From a virus (taxonomy: Duplodnaviria > Heunggongvirae > Uroviricota > Caudoviricetes), in the IMG/VR virus record IMGVR_UViG_2706794686_000013: DNA of 9,596 bases; one strand, given 5' to 3'. Below, one piece after another: positions 1,326-7,717 of this stretch. How positions within the stretch are numbered: the stretch's first letter is position 1; each line of letters begins with the position of its first letter. A program made the translations under genes and the position numbers. The notes below the pieces were generated by a model. That model worked only from the letters and a program-made list of their open reading frames with translations, was not told the origin of the DNA and searched no databases.

Positions 1326-3154
1326 GCAATCATCACTCCATAGAAACCAGCGATAGTTCTCTCAATAATCCGTCTGTGGACGCCAGCATCAATTAACGAT
1401 TGAATCTCCATCACCTGCTCCAGAGAAGGCAACGGGATTGAATTCAATTCATAGGCCGAAACAGCAACACTTCCGCTTATACACCTGAACGCCCGATCGA
1501 CAACATGCGAATTAAGTAGCATATCAATAACATCAGGGCGAACCGCAGAGAACAATCCGTTTGAATATACAATATTAATATGGTTTTCAACTACTACGCC
1601 ACCAGTTTCATCTATAAATCCCTGAGGTAAAATTGCCGCTAAAATCCTTCTGTCCTGTTCCTTCGATGTTGTCCGCTGAACAAGCACACATTCAGATTTT
1701 GTCACAAGGAAACCCTGTTGTGGGGTTATATCGATATAGGGAACATGATTTTTTCTGTCTGCACTAAAACGAAAACCAGCTGAAGTTATTGATTCCGCCC
1801 AGACTAATGGGTAGCTATTTTTTCCTTTCGTCGTACGCAACTGCGACTTAAATCGATTCCAGACTAACTGACCTGTAGAGACTGAGTATCCCAGATCAGC
1901 TAAACGCGTAGACATCTGTTTTAATACATTAAGAAAACAGGCATCATCTTTAACGCGTGGCAAAAGCCACGTTGCTCCACCTTTTTCTATATCAACATTA
2001 CCTATTTTCTCAATTTTTGCTTTGTTCAACCCCTTAGGGACAAGTGAGGATACCTGGGCCCGAACTTTATGTTCTCCCGCCTTGAATGCTGTCAACATTG
2101 TTTCCTGGAGAACATCGTCAAAGACCCCATCCCTGTCAGTGACGAAATCAAGGGCATACGGAGTAGTTTTTTCGGTCAAAAGGGTTCGCAGCGCGGTGAA
2201 ATACTGCCCACCAAGAAAAGAAGTTGGCGTAAGAAATGCAATAACTCCTGTTTTCTCTTTAACCATGCGAACAGCTAAGTCGGTGAACAATCCATATAGA
2301 TTTGCATGACCAAATAACGAACGAGAATATTTTTCTCTCGTTTTAATATCGAGAGTGACACGTCCGTAAGGCGGATTCCCTACCACAAGATCATAACCAG
2401 AAAATTTATCTTGCTGAAGCGCATCAGCAACAATAATTGTATCTTCAGGCAATCTACGTTTTACCTTTACACATAGTGGCATTAGTACAGATTCGAGCAA
2501 TACCAAACTCATCCAAGCCGCAAATGGATCGATCTCTATCCCCTTTAAACGACGACTGATTCTCCTCAACATCCATTCAGGGGAAGACCCCTTGTCTTTT
2601 TTTAACATTCGAATGGCTACTGGTGCCAAAAATGCACCGCCACCACACGCAGGATCAATAACCGATGCATGAGAAAAATCAACACCAGACTTTTCAGCCA
2701 GGTCCAAGAGACGCGCTACCAAAGGTGGGGGGGTATAGTAAGCCCCCAATTCCGAACGGTAAGCGGATGGCAGCATTACCGTATAAATTGACCCAATCAG
2801 ATATCCAGCGTCCTCCGCCGGAAATTGAGCAATAAGCTCACCTGTTCGTTCAGCGAGCTCGCGTGCATCACATGGAATGTCTTCTATGTAAACAGTGTGC
2901 GGTACTGCCCTCATTTTAATGCTGCTTTTTTGCTTTTTTGCAAGGGTATCCCAATATGCAGCTACGATGCTGAAGCAGTATGAGCGGGCATGCATCAACC
3001 TTGACTGCCCGGTTTTGTAATTGCCCGCATAACCTTTGGCCATGGCTTTACAAGTTTGATATCTTTCCAGATTAGAAAACTCATTATCTGTAAAAAAATC
3101 AAAATGTTGCACATTCATAATGTAAAATCCTAATGTATCAAACATGCGGGCCAT
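1322..3154 (-). CDS. N6-adenine-specific DNA methyltransferase, gamma-class motif order
   Basis: 610-aa ORF with AdoMet-binding motif I (IDPACGGGAFL) followed by catalytic motif IV (VVGNPPYG) and a motif X-like GAYYTPP upstream, then about 330 aa C-terminal to NPPY consistent with a target recognition domain. Start is ambiguous between ATG 3154, ATG 3145 and ATG about 3118 (the last has AGGA upstream). Confidence 0.85.
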   Translation of the reverse strand: MARMFDTLGFYIMNVQHFDFFTDNEFSNLERYQTCKAMAKGYAGNYKTGQSRLMHARSYCFSIVAAYWDTLAKKQKSSIKMRAVPHTVYIEDIPCDARELAERTGELIAQFPAEDAGYLIGSIYTVMLPSAYRSELGAYYTPPPLVARLLDLAEKSGVDFSHASVIDPACGGGAFLAPVAIRMLKKDKGSSPEWMLRRISRRLKGIEIDPFAAWMSLVLLESVLMPLCVKVKRRLPEDTIIVADALQQDKFSGYDLVVGNPPYGRVTLDIKTREKYSRSLFGHANLYGLFTDLAVRMVKEKTGVIAFLTPTSFLGGQYFTALRTLLTEKTTPYALDFVTDRDGVFDDVLQETMLTAFKAGEHKVRAQVSSLVPKGLNKAKIEKIGNVDIEKGGATWLLPRVKDDACFLNVLKQMSTRLADLGYSVSTGQLVWNRFKSQLRTTKGKNSYPLVWAESITSAGFRFSADRKNHVPYIDITPQQGFLVTKSECVLVQRTTSKEQDRRILAAILPQGFIDETGGVVVENHINIVYSNGLFSAVRPDVIDMLLNSHVVDRAFRCISGSVAVSAYELNSIPLPSLEQVMEIQSLIDAGVHRRIIERTIAGFYGVMIA

Positions 3155-3368
3155 AACATCTCATGGTGGCGCATAGCAAACTGGCCCGAAGAATATCACG
3201 CACCAAGTCGATCTCATAACCCGTTATGACAATAAATCTTTGTAGCTGAACTCACTTGGTGATTTGTCAATCATTCCTGGCCTCCAGTTCGTCCTGAATC
3301 TCTTTATCGAGTTCACCGTATTTGTTAGTCCTCATCACTCACGACTTGACTTCCAGAAATAACCTTGA

Positions 3369-3725
3369 TTATTCGGGGCTATATTTTGTCACCCTGCGTA
3401 TCCGCGCTTTCGCATTACGCTCAATCTGGATTAGCTTTTCTATATTTTTTCGCCTTTCCCGCTCCTCCTGGCGCAAGAGCCTTACATCATCTGCCAGTCT
3501 GGTTTCTCTTTTCGCCACAGAGAGCATCCAGTCAAATGGCTCCACAACTGCACCGCAAATTTTACAGCGGACCTGACGCTCTTTTTCGTCAACCCGGACA
3601 GAAGCGTGATGGCAATATGGTCTTTCCGATGGCTCATAAAGAAAATTAACCTGATTACGAGGGTTATCCTCTTTTACCGGAAATAAAACAATATTGCTTA
3701 ACTCATCTTCTGGTTTTATTTCCAT
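3369..3725 (-). CDS. Hypothetical prophage protein; possible Cys/His zinc-ribbon followed by a basic coiled-coil tail
   Basis: Track ORF 3369..3782 begins at a GTG; an in-frame ATG at 3723..3725 (MEIKPEDEL...) has a strong SD (aggagaggag) 5-8 nt upstream and is preferred. Contains CHH...x14...CKIC and an Arg/Glu-rich C-terminus (RLLRQEERERRKNIEKLIQIERNAKARIRR). Same strand and tight packing with neighbouring genes. Confidence 0.5.
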   Translation of the reverse strand: MEIKPEDELSNIVLFPVKEDNPRNQVNFLYEPSERPYCHHASVRVDEKERQVRCKICGAVVEPFDWMLSVAKRETRLADDVRLLRQEERERRKNIEKLIQIERNAKARIRRVTKYSPE

Positions 3726-4967: not shown

Positions 4968-5465
4968 TTACTTCACAACTCCCGGAAAGCTGACATTTGA
5001 ACGCCAGCTATCCCAGTTAAACGTCACCCACCGACAACCGTTCATGGTCATGCGGTCCATAATCCTCTCACCAAGAAGCGTGCTCATTGCGGCATGATTC
5101 AGGTTTGTTAACATCCCGACACTGCACAGTGATGCTGTCCGGCGATCAATTATCTGGTGCAATACCACCTGCTCGTTTTTCGTCTCCCGCTGAATGCCTA
5201 TTTCATCCAGGACCAGCAAATCAACCCCGCAAAGCTCCTGTAAAAATTTTTCACCGGATTTGCCGTTGTCGTAGCTGTCATGCAACACGCTCATGACATC
5301 AGACTCGGTGACGATAATCACGCTGCGCCCCTTCGCCATCAGCCGGTTACCCATCGCCGCTGCAAGGTGATTTTTCCCGGTGCCGGTTTTACCGCTGAAC
5401 ACAAAATTCGTGCACCCGGTCATCAGTTCGTCAGCTATGGATTTGGCCTGGCTCAGCGCGTATTT
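4968..5465 (-). CDS. DnaC-like helicase loader / phage replication protein P-analogue (AAA+ ATPase), 5' end lost in N-run
   Basis: Visible portion reads ...KYALSQAKSIADELMTGCTNFVFSGKTGTGKNHLAAAMGNRL..., with the Walker A SGKTGTGKNHLAAA that closely matches E. coli DnaC (SGKPGTGKNHLAAA), and a Walker B-like LLVLDEIG. The frame is open right up to the N-run at 5466, so the true start is inside the unresolved block. Confidence 0.85.
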   Translation of the reverse strand, partial: KYALSQAKSIADELMTGCTNFVFSGKTGTGKNHLAAAMGNRLMAKGRSVIIVTESDVMSVLHDSYDNGKSGEKFLQELCGVDLLVLDEIGIQRETKNEQVVLHQIIDRRTASLCSVGMLTNLNHAAMSTLLGERIMDRMTMNGCRWVTFNWDSWRSNVSFPGVVK

Positions 5466-5686
5466 NNNNNNNNNNNNNNNNNNNNNNNNNNNNNNNNNNN
5501 NNNNNNNNNNNNNNNNNNNNNNNNNNNNNNNNNNNNNNNNNNNNNNNNNNNNNNNNNNNNNNNNNNNNNNNNNNNNNNNNNNNNNNNNNNNNNNNNNNNN
5601 NNNNNNNNNNNNNNNNNNNNNNNNNNNNNNNNNNNNNNNNNNNNNNNNNNNNNNNNNNNNNNNNNNNNNNNNNNNNNNNNNNNNNN
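5466..5686. other. Unresolved/masked bases (221 N)
   Basis: Continuous run of n. Covers the 3' end of the O-like gene and the 5' end of the DnaC-like gene; ORF-track residues shown as X are not real. Confidence 1.
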
Positions 5687-6673
5687 TACCGGGAGCAACC
5701 AGGGGTTTTCAAAATTCCGGTCCGGCCCAAAAAACGTCGTCGCTCGCTGAACAAATTCCGTTCCCGCTTTCCCGGTCGCCGCCAGGTATCTCGCGTAACG
5801 CCTCACACCATCCAGCATGGTCTCTGGTGGCACCCCCTCGCGCAATCTGGCCTTCCAGGCACTGAATGCGGATTTCTTCGGGTTTGCCCCGGCACGCAAC
5901 GGGTATTCCCGCCAGACCTGTTCGAACACATCCGGATAATCCACTCGTCCCACAGGCTGCCCGGTGTTTTCCGGGGCTACCCGATCGGCTTCCCGCTGAA
6001 TGGCGGAATCGGCTTCAGGCTGCTGCAGTTGGAGTGATTGCTCCGGCCTTGCGGTCATCACCTGCTGCACAGCGCCCGAATCGGCTTTCAGCGCATACGC
6101 TGAATCGGCTTCCGGTGTCGAGCCTGCTGGCTGACCAGGATTGACGGTCTGAACATCCCCTGCCTGGTTCGTGGCGTTTTTTACGCCATGGACCATAGTG
6201 TTTTGATCTTCTTTATCTGTATCTTTATCTGTATCTGTCGTGACTCGTCGTGACATGTGCGTGACATTTCGTGACGCGCCGTGACAATCGCCATTTTGTT
6301 CCCGCTTTCTTTCCCTCTCTCGCTGCGCCCTCTTGCGCTCTGCAGGAGATTTTGCGGTTTGCGAAATATTGCCGTTGTCCTCTTTAAGCACCTGGCGTTT
6401 TTCCCATCCAGTGATTAAATCACCATCAAGTACCCGCCCCTGCATCGTCTGCAAAATTGAATCAATTACCTCTTCTGTCACGTCGAGCGCACTTGCCAAA
6501 TCTTCTGTCGTGACATCAATGTGACCTCGCGTGACATTTCGTGACGCGCTCACCAGGAGGTGGATATACACTGCCATCACTGTTGCAATTGGCTGCCCTG
6601 ACACCCTGGCAATTGTTCGCCACTTAGGGTCATTTGGCATGTCATGCCATAATCTGAGCCAGGCGTTAGCCAT
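5687..6673 (-). CDS. Phage replication initiation protein (lambda O-like role), 3' end lost in N-run
   Basis: ATG at 6671..6673 (MANAWLRLWHDMPNDPKWRTIARVSGQ...) with SD agaggtg upstream; the track start at 6679 is GTG. Sits immediately upstream of the DnaC-like gene and contains the iteron arrays within its coding sequence, as lambda O does. C-terminal region visible to 5687 (...FENPWLLPV) then runs into N. Confidence 0.6.
6211..6234 (+). repeat. Perfect 12-bp tandem duplication (ctttatctgtat x2) in an AT-rich stretch adjoining iteron array A
   Basis: 6211..6222 and 6223..6234 are identical; encodes the TDKDTDKD stretch of the initiator on the opposite strand. Confidence 0.8.
6240..6285. repeat. 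Iteron-like array A: five helically phased GTGAC(A) repeats
   Basis: GTGAC begins at 6240, 6250, 6261, 6271 and 6281 (spacing 10, 11, 10, 10 bp). Contains the 21-mer gcgtgacatttcgtgacgcgc at 6259..6279. Confidence 0.75.
6510..6549. repeat. Iteron-like array B: four helically phased GTGAC repeats plus one inverted copy upstream
   Basis: GTGAC begins at 6510, 6521, 6531 and 6541 (spacing 11, 10, 10 bp); inverted GTCAC at 6477..6481. The exact 21-mer gcgtgacatttcgtgacgcgc recurs at 6529..6549, 270 bp from the copy in array A. Confidence 0.75.
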
Positions 6674-6744: not shown

Positions 6745-7170
6745 TCAATGTACTGCCACAGCATTTCCTGCCGGGCCACCACGGTTCATCTGATTGAAAC
6801 CGGCGATTGCCACTGCGACAAAATCATCAGCGTCTCTCACCAGTCGTTCATGCGTCTCCACCAGTTCCCGAAAATAAGCTGAACTGTGGCTGCGCATTCG
6901 AGCCACCAGCGGAGGTGGCATTGCCCTTTCGATCGCAGGTAACAACGCCTGAATTTTTTCAACAGCGTCAGGGGTGTCTTTATCCAGCCAACGGAAAATC
7001 TTTTGGGTGTTGAGATAAAGCGTGTTGTGCTTGCTGTCGTTATGCAGAACCGGAAACGTCATTCCCAGTTCGAAATAAACCCTGGTTATTTCAGCTGCCG
7101 GAACTTTTTCACCGTCCGGATGCGCCCAGGCTTTCATCGCCATGCGGATGTGTTCATGCTTGATTTTCAT
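6745..7170 (-). CDS. ydaT: YdaT-like protein (CII-like regulator position in a Rac-type immunity region)
   Basis: 141-aa ORF starting MKIKHEHIRMAMKAWAHPDGEK..., which I associate with the YdaT family of Rac-like prophages (recall, unverified). Sits between the cro-like gene and the replication initiator. Its ATG overlaps the cro-like stop (ATGA at 7167..7170); GGGGG SD upstream. Confidence 0.5.
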   Translation of the reverse strand: MKIKHEHIRMAMKAWAHPDGEKVPAAEITRVYFELGMTFPVLHNDSKHNTLYLNTQKIFRWLDKDTPDAVEKIQALLPAIERAMPPPLVARMRSHSSAYFRELVETHERLVRDADDFVAVAIAGFNQMNRGGPAGNAVAVH

Positions 7171-7420: not shown

Positions 7421-7717
7421 NNNNNNNNNNNNNNNNNNNNNNNNNNNNNNNNNNNNNNNNNNNNNNNNNNNNNNNNNNNNNNNNNNNNNNNNNNNNNNNN
7501 NNNNNNNNNNNNNNNNNNNNNNNNNNNNNNNNNNNNNNNNNNNNNNNNNNNNNNNNNNNNNNNNNNNNNNNNNNNNNNNNNNNNNNNNNNNNNNNNNNNN
7601 NNNNNNNNNNNNNNNNNNNNNNNNNNNNNNNNNNNNNNNNNNNNNNNNNNNNNNNNNNNNNNNNNNNNNNNNNNNNNNNNNNNNNNNNNNNNNNNNNNNN
7701 NNNNNNNNNNNNNNNNN
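7421..7717. other. Unresolved/masked bases (297 N)
   Basis: Continuous run of n covering the 5' ends of both divergent regulator genes and the whole intergenic operator/promoter region between them. Confidence 1.

Follow-up and report, generated by a model that had tools for sequence, protein, structure and literature searches.

Origins of replication that lie within the gene of their own initiator are textbook knowledge. In phage lambda, the origin starts at about codon 117 of gene O, with iterons that lead into a tract rich in A on the coding strand; an inverted repeat comes next (PMC7466680). The oriL of phage SPP1 is located in gene 38 and contains repeated boxes and an unwinding element, with G38P acting as the replisome organizer (PMC5737612). 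In plasmids, iterons are bound by winged-helix initiators, and extra iteron clusters can serve copy control (PMC4980987).

The DNA analyzed here, referred to as the window, is 9,596 nucleotides long and corresponds to the early-right region of a Qin/dicB-type lambdoid prophage of E. coli. The initiator gene contains two arrays of short direct repeats, and we consider positions 6165–6549 to be probably (with a probability of roughly 0.8) a cis-acting replication origin of the prophage, situated within its own initiator gene. A literature search, to which most subscription journals were not open, found no description of iterons or of an origin in this protein family, so that an earlier prediction may exist; a paper on the 'Eru' replication regions of Stx phages does not mention iterons.

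The initiator and its genomic context

The genes surrounding the putative origin are as follows:

5687–6673, minus strand: visible part of the replication initiator gene, translated from the ATG at 6673–6671
5466–5686, masked run of N: contains the 3' end of the initiator gene
4968–5423, minus strand: gene for a DnaC-like helicase loader, located downstream of the initiator, with its 5' end inside the N run
6745–7170, minus strand: cII-like/YdaT gene, directly upstream of the initiator

The initiator belongs to PHROG 3729 ('replication initiation protein', E = 2e-230) and is of the 'phage replisome organizer' type, a name that NCBI sources also give to its close relatives. The loader is matched by Pfam IstB_IS21 (5e-18), PHROG 50 'DnaC-like helicase loader' (2e-55) and NCBIfam DnaC (4e-59), and is followed by a DUF1627 gene; the genes are on the minus strand. 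The cII-like/YdaT gene, matched by Pfam YdaT_toxin (5e-9) and PHROG 163 'CII-like transcriptional activator' (3e-40), shows synteny in related phages. Its position immediately upstream indicates that the initiator belongs to the early-right (pR-type) operon, which also holds a cro/YdaS-like gene interrupted by a masked run (7421–7717). Seven related phage records (Tritos, Evi, vB_EcoS-640R1, and others) are 93–95% identical across this region, and related records annotate the initiator as a replication protein or replisome organizer. The module has a match in 2237 of 5426 complete E. coli genomes (∼40%). A search for plasmids with the module as their only replicon gave just 11 records, mostly large plasmids or mislabelled chromosomes, together with two ∼51-kb Pseudomonas circles that are probably phage genomes, and is no evidence either way. 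An Rfam scan of the window identified no RNA family, and an interpretation as an RNA element was dropped.

An initial annotation of this DNA had described the protein as an O-like initiator. This description is appropriate for its role and position but not for its descent, as no homology to lambda O is detectable: hhalign of the homologue alignment against lambda O gave a probability of 0.1%, and the initiator has no match to PF04492 (Phage_rep_O), which recognizes lambda O itself at 6e-36. Homology to SPP1 G38P was rejected on similar grounds (hhalign probability of 0.1%; PF09524, the family that G38P matches, does not match the initiator). Searches of the initiator against Pfam and NCBIfam gave nothing above threshold, and a sequence search of solved structures gave nothing relevant. 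PF09681, the N-terminal phage replisome organizer domain, scores below its cut-off of 23.3 bits (E = 0.016, 15.6 bits), with an alignment that extends from end to end (residues 5–123 on profile positions 1–119 of 121).

An AlphaFold2 model of residues 1–159, calculated from an alignment of 22 sequences and of medium confidence (pLDDT 68), contains helices at residues 29–45, 56–63, and 67–77, as well as a hairpin at 78–88. The predicted topology of this N-terminal domain (N-domain) is winged-helix-like. A Foldseek search of the model against the PDB returned nothing significant, the weak look-alikes being the winged helices of MarR/MepR, CAP, and ArsR. Residues 132–159 are disordered in the model (pLDDT<50).

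Iteron arrays, AT-rich tract and mosaic junction

The candidate origin and its elements are:

6239–6285, minus strand: array A, five direct GTCACG iterons, starting on the plus strand at 6240, 6250, 6261, 6271, and 6281
6509–6545, minus strand: array B, four direct GTCAC(G/A) iterons, starting on the plus strand at 6510, 6521, 6531, and 6541
6477–6482, plus strand: inverted iteron GTCACG in codons D64-V65-T66, about three helical turns from array B
6196–6239, no strand assigned: AT-rich tract and putative DNA-unwinding element, 44 nt with a GC content of 0.30, directly abutting array A
6165–6195, no strand assigned: imperfect inverted repeat with a 13-pair stem and a 5-nt loop, just past the AT-rich tract
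6200–6216, no strand assigned: mosaic (recombination) junction between initiator alleles, from the split in megablast matches

The iteron reads GTGAC on the plus strand and GTCAC on the coding strand, and recurs at a pitch of 10–11 nt in both arrays, which are ∼230 bp apart within one gene. Read on its own strand, the inverted copy is part of a longer hexamer, GTCACG, and so are eight of the nine direct copies. The initial annotation had located five copies of GTGAC at 6240–6285 and four at 6510–6545 with a spacing of 10–11 bp, plus an inverted copy at 6477–6481, and these coordinates are confirmed. The same is true of an exact 21-mer (GCGTGACATTTCGTGACGCGC) that is common to 6259–6279 and 6529–6549, and the repeated peptides that it had listed (ASRNVT...VTTDTDKD and ASRNVT...DVTTED) are found in the translation from the ATG at 6673. 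Its placement of the repeats in the protein linker applies to array A, which occupies codons ∼130–145 in the disordered interdomain linker (the disordered residues 132–159 of the model correspond to array A and the AT-rich tract). It does not apply to array B, which falls in the N-terminal DNA-binding-type domain: the direct copies occupy codons 43–55 (ASRNVTRGHIDVT), or codons 43–66 together with the inverted copy, and the array-B peptide forms the end of the first helix (29–45) and the loop 46–55 in the model.

The phasing of the repeats far exceeds chance. When the window was shuffled 300 times with dinucleotides preserved, the longest phased run (10–11 nt) of any 5-mer reached 2–3 copies, compared to the observed run of 5. 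When the same protein was recoded synonymously 20,000 times, GTCAC occurred 1.8 times on average, with a maximum of 7 and never 9 copies, and a phased run of at least 4 was seen in 0.055%. In the complete genome of the related phage Tritos (46 kb), GTCAC clusters only in the two arrays; a third cluster was looked for, and none was found.

A search for DnaA boxes found no TTATCCACA with at most one mismatch anywhere in the window. Such boxes are present at some iteron origins, and neither lambda nor SPP1 needs DnaA. Scans for promoters and terminators gave no excess compared to shuffles. The iterons form a weak promoter-like match on the plus strand (9/12), which is no commoner than in shuffles.

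The AT-rich tract is composed of GAT-AAA/ACA hexamers that encode D-K/T repeats. The local GC content, 27% for 6200–6236 and 30% for 6200–6239, is the minimum of the gene. A perfect 12-bp tandem duplication, already noticed in the initial annotation, is present in this tract at 6210–6233 (Tandem Repeats Finder: period 12, 100% matches). Array B has no adjacent AT-rich tract. The inverted repeat past the tract may mark a boundary of the origin, which probably reaches left to ∼6165.

Matches found by megablast break at query positions 515/527, corresponding to 6204/6216 of the window, and E. coli 118UI, when aligned, breaks at this place too. One module comprises the N-domain, both arrays, and the AT-rich tract, while the C-terminal domain and the helicase loader form the other. 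The partners exchanged across the junction are a DnaC-like loader here, a lambda-P-like protein in 118UI, and a DnaB helicase in Ralstonia phage Firinga. These comparisons show that the N-domain, the arrays, and the AT-rich tract are inherited as one module.

Conservation and co-variation among homologous genes

Homologues were gathered with the N-terminal 159 residues of the initiator from phage records (Aeromonas phage pAEv1818, Pseudomonas phage phi1, Ralstonia phage Firinga, and a freshwater podovirus), E. coli 118UI, and one genome per species (47 loci). The initial annotation had proposed such an alignment as a check, and the phased repeats and the AT-richness proved to be kept well beyond what the protein requires. 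Homologues with GTCAC-type repeats (n = 23–25) have 62–73% DNA identity to the window and come from γ- and β-proteobacteria, including Shigella, E. albertii, Aquitalea, Rahnella, Serratia, Bordetella, Pseudomonas, Acidovorax, Aeromonas, Gilvimarinus, Castellaniella, Chromobacterium, and others. They contain 3–6 copies at coding positions ∼129–181 and 3–5 at ∼380–500, always with a pitch of 10–11 nt, and most have the inverted copy at coding position 193.

The motif is spelled in three frames, as gcG TCA Cga (A-S-R/M-S-R), GTC ACg (V-T), and gGT/tGT CAC (G-H/C-H). A peptide repeat therefore cannot account for the arrays. The codons of the array residues are nearly invariant among these homologues:

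Array B, S44: TCA in 24 of 25
Array B, V47: GTC in 25 of 25
Array B, T48: ACG in 25 of 25
Array B, G50: GGT in 25 of 25
Array B, H51: CAC in 24 of 24
Array B, V54: GTC in 25 of 25
Inverted copy, V65: GTG in 22 of the 22 homologues with Val
Array A, Ser: TCA in 25 of 25
Array A, Val: GTC in 25 of 25
Array A, His: CAC in 21 of 21

Other invariant residues (R7, L8, P13, V32, G79, V81, and others) use 3–6 codons. The normalized codon entropy is 0.24 for array B with the inverted copy and 0.26 for array A with the AT-rich tract, compared to 0.84 for 60 other conserved columns used as controls (Mann-Whitney p = 7.5e-7 for array B and 4.7e-6 for array A plus the AT-rich tract). These frozen codons directly support the earlier suggestion that selection on the DNA constrains the protein.

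Copy number shifts in steps of 21 nt, the length of two repeats and of seven codons. The arrays of E. coli 118UI and E. albertii comprise 6+5 copies, and their array B loop is longer by 7 residues; enterobacterial alleles carry an additional HMSRRVT in array A. The helical phase between the two arrays is not kept among homologues, where the distances range from 250 to 350 nt.

In all 23 GTCAC-type homologues, array A runs directly into an AT-rich tract of the form (n)AGATAAAGATAAAGA..., 25–59 nt in length with a GC content of 0.17–0.36. The choice of codons in this tract is near-fixed (Asp is GAT in 21 of 21 cases and Lys is AAA in 19 of 20), indicating that AT-richness is itself selected. Most homologues also have a short GC-rich inverted repeat at the position equivalent to 6165–6195, with sequences that are unrelated among homologues (e.g. 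CGCGCACGTGCGCG in E. coli 118UI and TACCCCC-TGA-GGGGGTA in phage phi1). The mean fold z at this position is -1.39, compared to -0.48 for 138 control segments (p = 3e-4), and the conservation of the inverted repeat is suggestive rather than strong. Overall, the aligned genes provide clear evidence of purifying selection on the DNA itself, which acts on the repeats, on the AT-richness, and on how they are arranged.

More distant homologues (35–60% identity) have no GTCAC; another core is found at both places, with the same pitch of 10–11 nt, and is followed by an A-rich tract. The cores assigned to particular sources are:

CGAACGCA: Massilia, Collimonas, several metagenome-assembled genomes, and the freshwater podovirus
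GTAACGCA: Sphingomonas and Marinobacter
GCAACGC: Ralstonia phage Firinga
CGTCACGT: Erwinia

GAACGCA is among the cores of the more distant subfamilies. The encoded peptides shift at both positions (NATERG/PNATER; ETTGNAGVTQG twice), and the loop and linker peptides vary in step with the core: ASRNVTRGH with GTCACG, SNATERGRT with GAACGCA, and ETTGNAGVTQG with GTAACGCA. Defined as an exact 5-mer with at least two phased copies in each zone, the two-array layout is present in 38 of 48 homologous genes, compared to 8 of 692 random 620-nt control segments (∼1%). About 10 of the 48 homologues have no recognizable two-array layout, some of them with the N-domain kept; among these are the Ventosimonas/Entomomonas loci, as well as two genes whose C-terminal fusion differs. 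Within the protein family, the two array positions thus change their core together.

A putative origin and its comparison with known systems

The anatomy of 6165–6549 matches that of lambda ori and SPP1 oriL, and we therefore interpret this segment as an origin. At least three direct repeats in the initiator gene, an adjoining AT-rich tract, and maintenance at the DNA level, which characterize an intragenic iteron origin, are all present. In the mechanism that we propose, the N-terminal winged-helix-type domain would bind the GTCACG iterons, whose pitch of 10–11 bp puts every site on the same face of the helix. Bound monomers may oligomerize on array A into an O-some-like complex, which would strain and open the abutting 44-bp AT-rich tract. 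The exchangeable C-terminal domain would then bring the DnaC-like loader, together with host DnaB, to the opened DNA. The initiation core would thus consist of array A, the AT-rich tract, and the inverted repeat, while array B with the inverted copy, ∼230 bp upstream, could be an auxiliary or control iteron cluster. It might contribute to a cooperative or looped assembly, or exert control, by titrating or handcuffing the initiator or as a roadblock to transcription of its gene. We infer these roles of the N-domain (iteron binding), the AT-rich tract (opening), the C-terminal domain (recruitment of the loader), and array B.

Control might also be the function of both arrays. Initiator-binding sites for autoregulation, titration, or handcuffing, with replication starting elsewhere in the prophage, would be compatible with an array B that has no adjoining AT-rich tract and is located towards the 5' end of the initiator coding sequence, where a bound protein could block transcription, as well as with the inter-array spacing, which is not conserved in phase. 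In plasmids such as P1 and F, a second cluster of iterons is known to act in control. We nevertheless regard this as unlikely, as a conserved AT-rich tract abuts array A in all GTCAC-type and most other homologues, and the complete genome of a related phage has no other iteron cluster. Furthermore, the characterized analogues, lambda and SPP1, initiate at such intragenic sites (PMC7466680, PMC5737612). It is even less probable that the repeats serve packaging (pac), mark a recombination hot spot, or bind some regulator of the host or phage instead of the initiator, despite the coincidence of the mosaic junction with the AT-rich tract and the promoter-like match that the iterons form on the plus strand. 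The pac site of P1, with its two clusters of short repeats, has a layout resembling the arrays. However, the arrays travel with the initiator N-domain despite unrelated packaging and morphogenesis modules and differing neighbor regulators, over a host range from Escherichia to Ralstonia; the repeat core differs between initiator subfamilies; and the promoter match, at 9/12, does not exceed that in shuffles.

An explanation with no function of the DNA, that the repeats merely reflect a needed peptide repeat (SRNVT/VT) or a recent internal duplication or gene conversion, might be suggested by the 21-mer shared between the arrays and by the array-encoded residues, which are invariant in the protein alignment. 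This explanation is effectively refuted. Different amino acids spell the motif in the three frames, synonymous sites are frozen while other invariant residues vary in codon, recoding never regains nine copies, and subfamilies with wholly different peptides keep matching DNA cores at both positions. The invariant appearance of the array residues is instead attributable to selection on the DNA sites, and their conservation should not be taken as a constraint at the protein level.

If 6165–6549 is the origin, it provides a precise putative start site of replication for a module carried by ∼40% of complete E. coli genomes, and present also in phages that infect Aeromonas, Pseudomonas, Bordetella, Ralstonia, and further hosts. 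The element is also a clean natural case of dual coding, in which selection for DNA sites freezes synonymous codons and fixes the loop and linker peptides. The motif can be destroyed synonymously, and the DNA and protein roles are therefore separable experimentally. Since array B lies in the sequence for the DNA-binding-type domain, the loop between helix 1 and strand 1 is spelled by the initiator's own putative binding sites. It is conceivable, although we would not expect it, that this loop shares in iteron recognition, or that binding at array B gates initiator synthesis in cis, giving a self-referential overlapping code. Either would mechanically couple origin specificity to protein sequence, and such a code could let initiator and origin diversify together rapidly in temperate phages, giving replication 'incompatibility types'.

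The parallel with lambda ori drawn in the initial annotation (phased iterons next to an AT-rich region inside the initiator gene) is supported, and the inverted repeat adds to it. Both lie at the boundary of the N-terminal DNA-binding domain and the linker, start near codon 117–130, and have the same order and polarity, with iterons followed by a coding-strand A-rich tract and an inverted repeat. Both genes are part of a cro-cII-initiator-loader operon. As in lambda, the N-domain and ori constitute one specificity module, while the C-terminal domain pairs with the loader; the modular exchange seen here fits the known domain logic of lambda O. Extra iterons lengthen the protein in frame in both cases, by 13 residues in Stx phages (PMC7466680) and by 7 in the family described here. 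However, the iterons of lambda are 18–19 bp long with internal symmetry, and form one array of 4; Stx phages 933W/P27 have 6. The iterons in the window are not of this type: the core is only GTCAC(G), 5–6 bp repeated at a pitch of 10–11 bp, its flanks are weakly conserved without a dyad, and there are two arrays ∼230 bp apart, one of them within the coding sequence of the DNA-binding-type domain.

SPP1 oriL is likewise embedded in the gene of a replisome organizer, with repeats adjoining an AT-rich element, and a separate helicase loader and helicase act downstream in both systems. The repeated boxes of SPP1 are targets of the organizer, which binds two discrete regions (PMC5737612), for which the two arrays would be the counterpart if they are bound as we propose. 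The second site of SPP1, oriR, is in a separate region of the genome, whereas both arrays are within one gene here. Plasmid iteron origins (pPS10, F, P1, R6K; PMC4980987) share the helically phased direct repeats and the adjoining AT-rich unwinding element, but their iterons are ∼17–22 bp long, lie outside the rep gene, and are usually accompanied by DnaA boxes (PMC4980987), of which the window has none. Intragenic origins are a known kind, here probably represented in an unrelated and widespread protein family. Notable distinctions of this putative origin are the very short core at helical pitch and the presence of two arrays in one gene, one of which lies in the sequence encoding the DNA-binding-type domain.

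Repeats and a promoter-like match within the initiator gene

The C-terminal module's half of the initiator gene contains a second repeat, distinct in location from the putative origin iterons. This repeat is listed here with a weak promoter-like match that overlaps array A, one of the two iteron arrays.

5984-5991, 6008-6015, 6080-6087 and 6104-6111, plus strand: four copies of ATCGGCTT
6261-6288, plus strand: weak sigma-70-like match (GTGACA, 16-nt spacer, GACAAT; 9/12)

The four copies of ATCGGCTT compare with 0.28 expected by chance, and successive copies start 24, 72 and 24 nt apart. Read on the coding strand, the repeat is AAGCCGAT, which falls in one reading frame in all copies and encodes an E/K-A-D peptide of the 'PEADSA' type. 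This could be a repeat of the peptide, or else a DNA site of a second type. The sigma-70-like match is built from the iterons themselves and is antisense to the initiator gene; matches of this kind are no commoner than in shuffled sequence.

Masked runs and possible assembly breaks

A run of N at 5466-5686 masks two gene ends, 3' for the initiator and 5' for the DnaC-like gene, and another run (7421-7717) masks the cro-repressor intergenic (operator) region. Among the protein database matches (P0001-P0038), most close relatives are labelled 'partial' and lie on short contigs. One protein cluster comprises 1121 member sequences, with a representative from a 683-nt contig. This pattern suggests frequent breaks in short-read assemblies within or close to this prophage gene, which is multi-copy and carries repeats.

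Homologous alleles and the module junction

Pseudomonas phage phi1 (L003, KT887557) carries a homologous initiator ORF with 4+4 GTCAC iterons at ~2501-3400. This ORF has no annotation in the GenBank record, and the records of sister Pseudomonas phages list two hypothetical proteins there. In alleles from Erwinia phyllosphaerae (L031) and from Pantoea and Enterobacter (L026/L029), the iterons are in part overlapping or unevenly spaced (examples are CGTCACGTCACGTCACG, and GTAACGTTAC palindromes), which may point to another binding geometry for this subfamily.

Genes from a Serratia MAG (L044) and Pantoea sp. (L052) share the N-terminal ~100 residues, here joined to another C-terminal portion that starts near residue 110 (...YVYYV...GISRNPWAR...). 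The iteron arrays are absent from both genes, and their N-domain may have been co-opted for a different role.

A recombination junction between initiator alleles maps to the outer boundary of the AT tract.

~6200-6216: recombination junction between initiator alleles

It separates one module, consisting of the N-domain, the arrays and the AT tract, from another formed by the C-domain and its loader, which among relatives is DnaC-like, lambda-P-like or DnaB.
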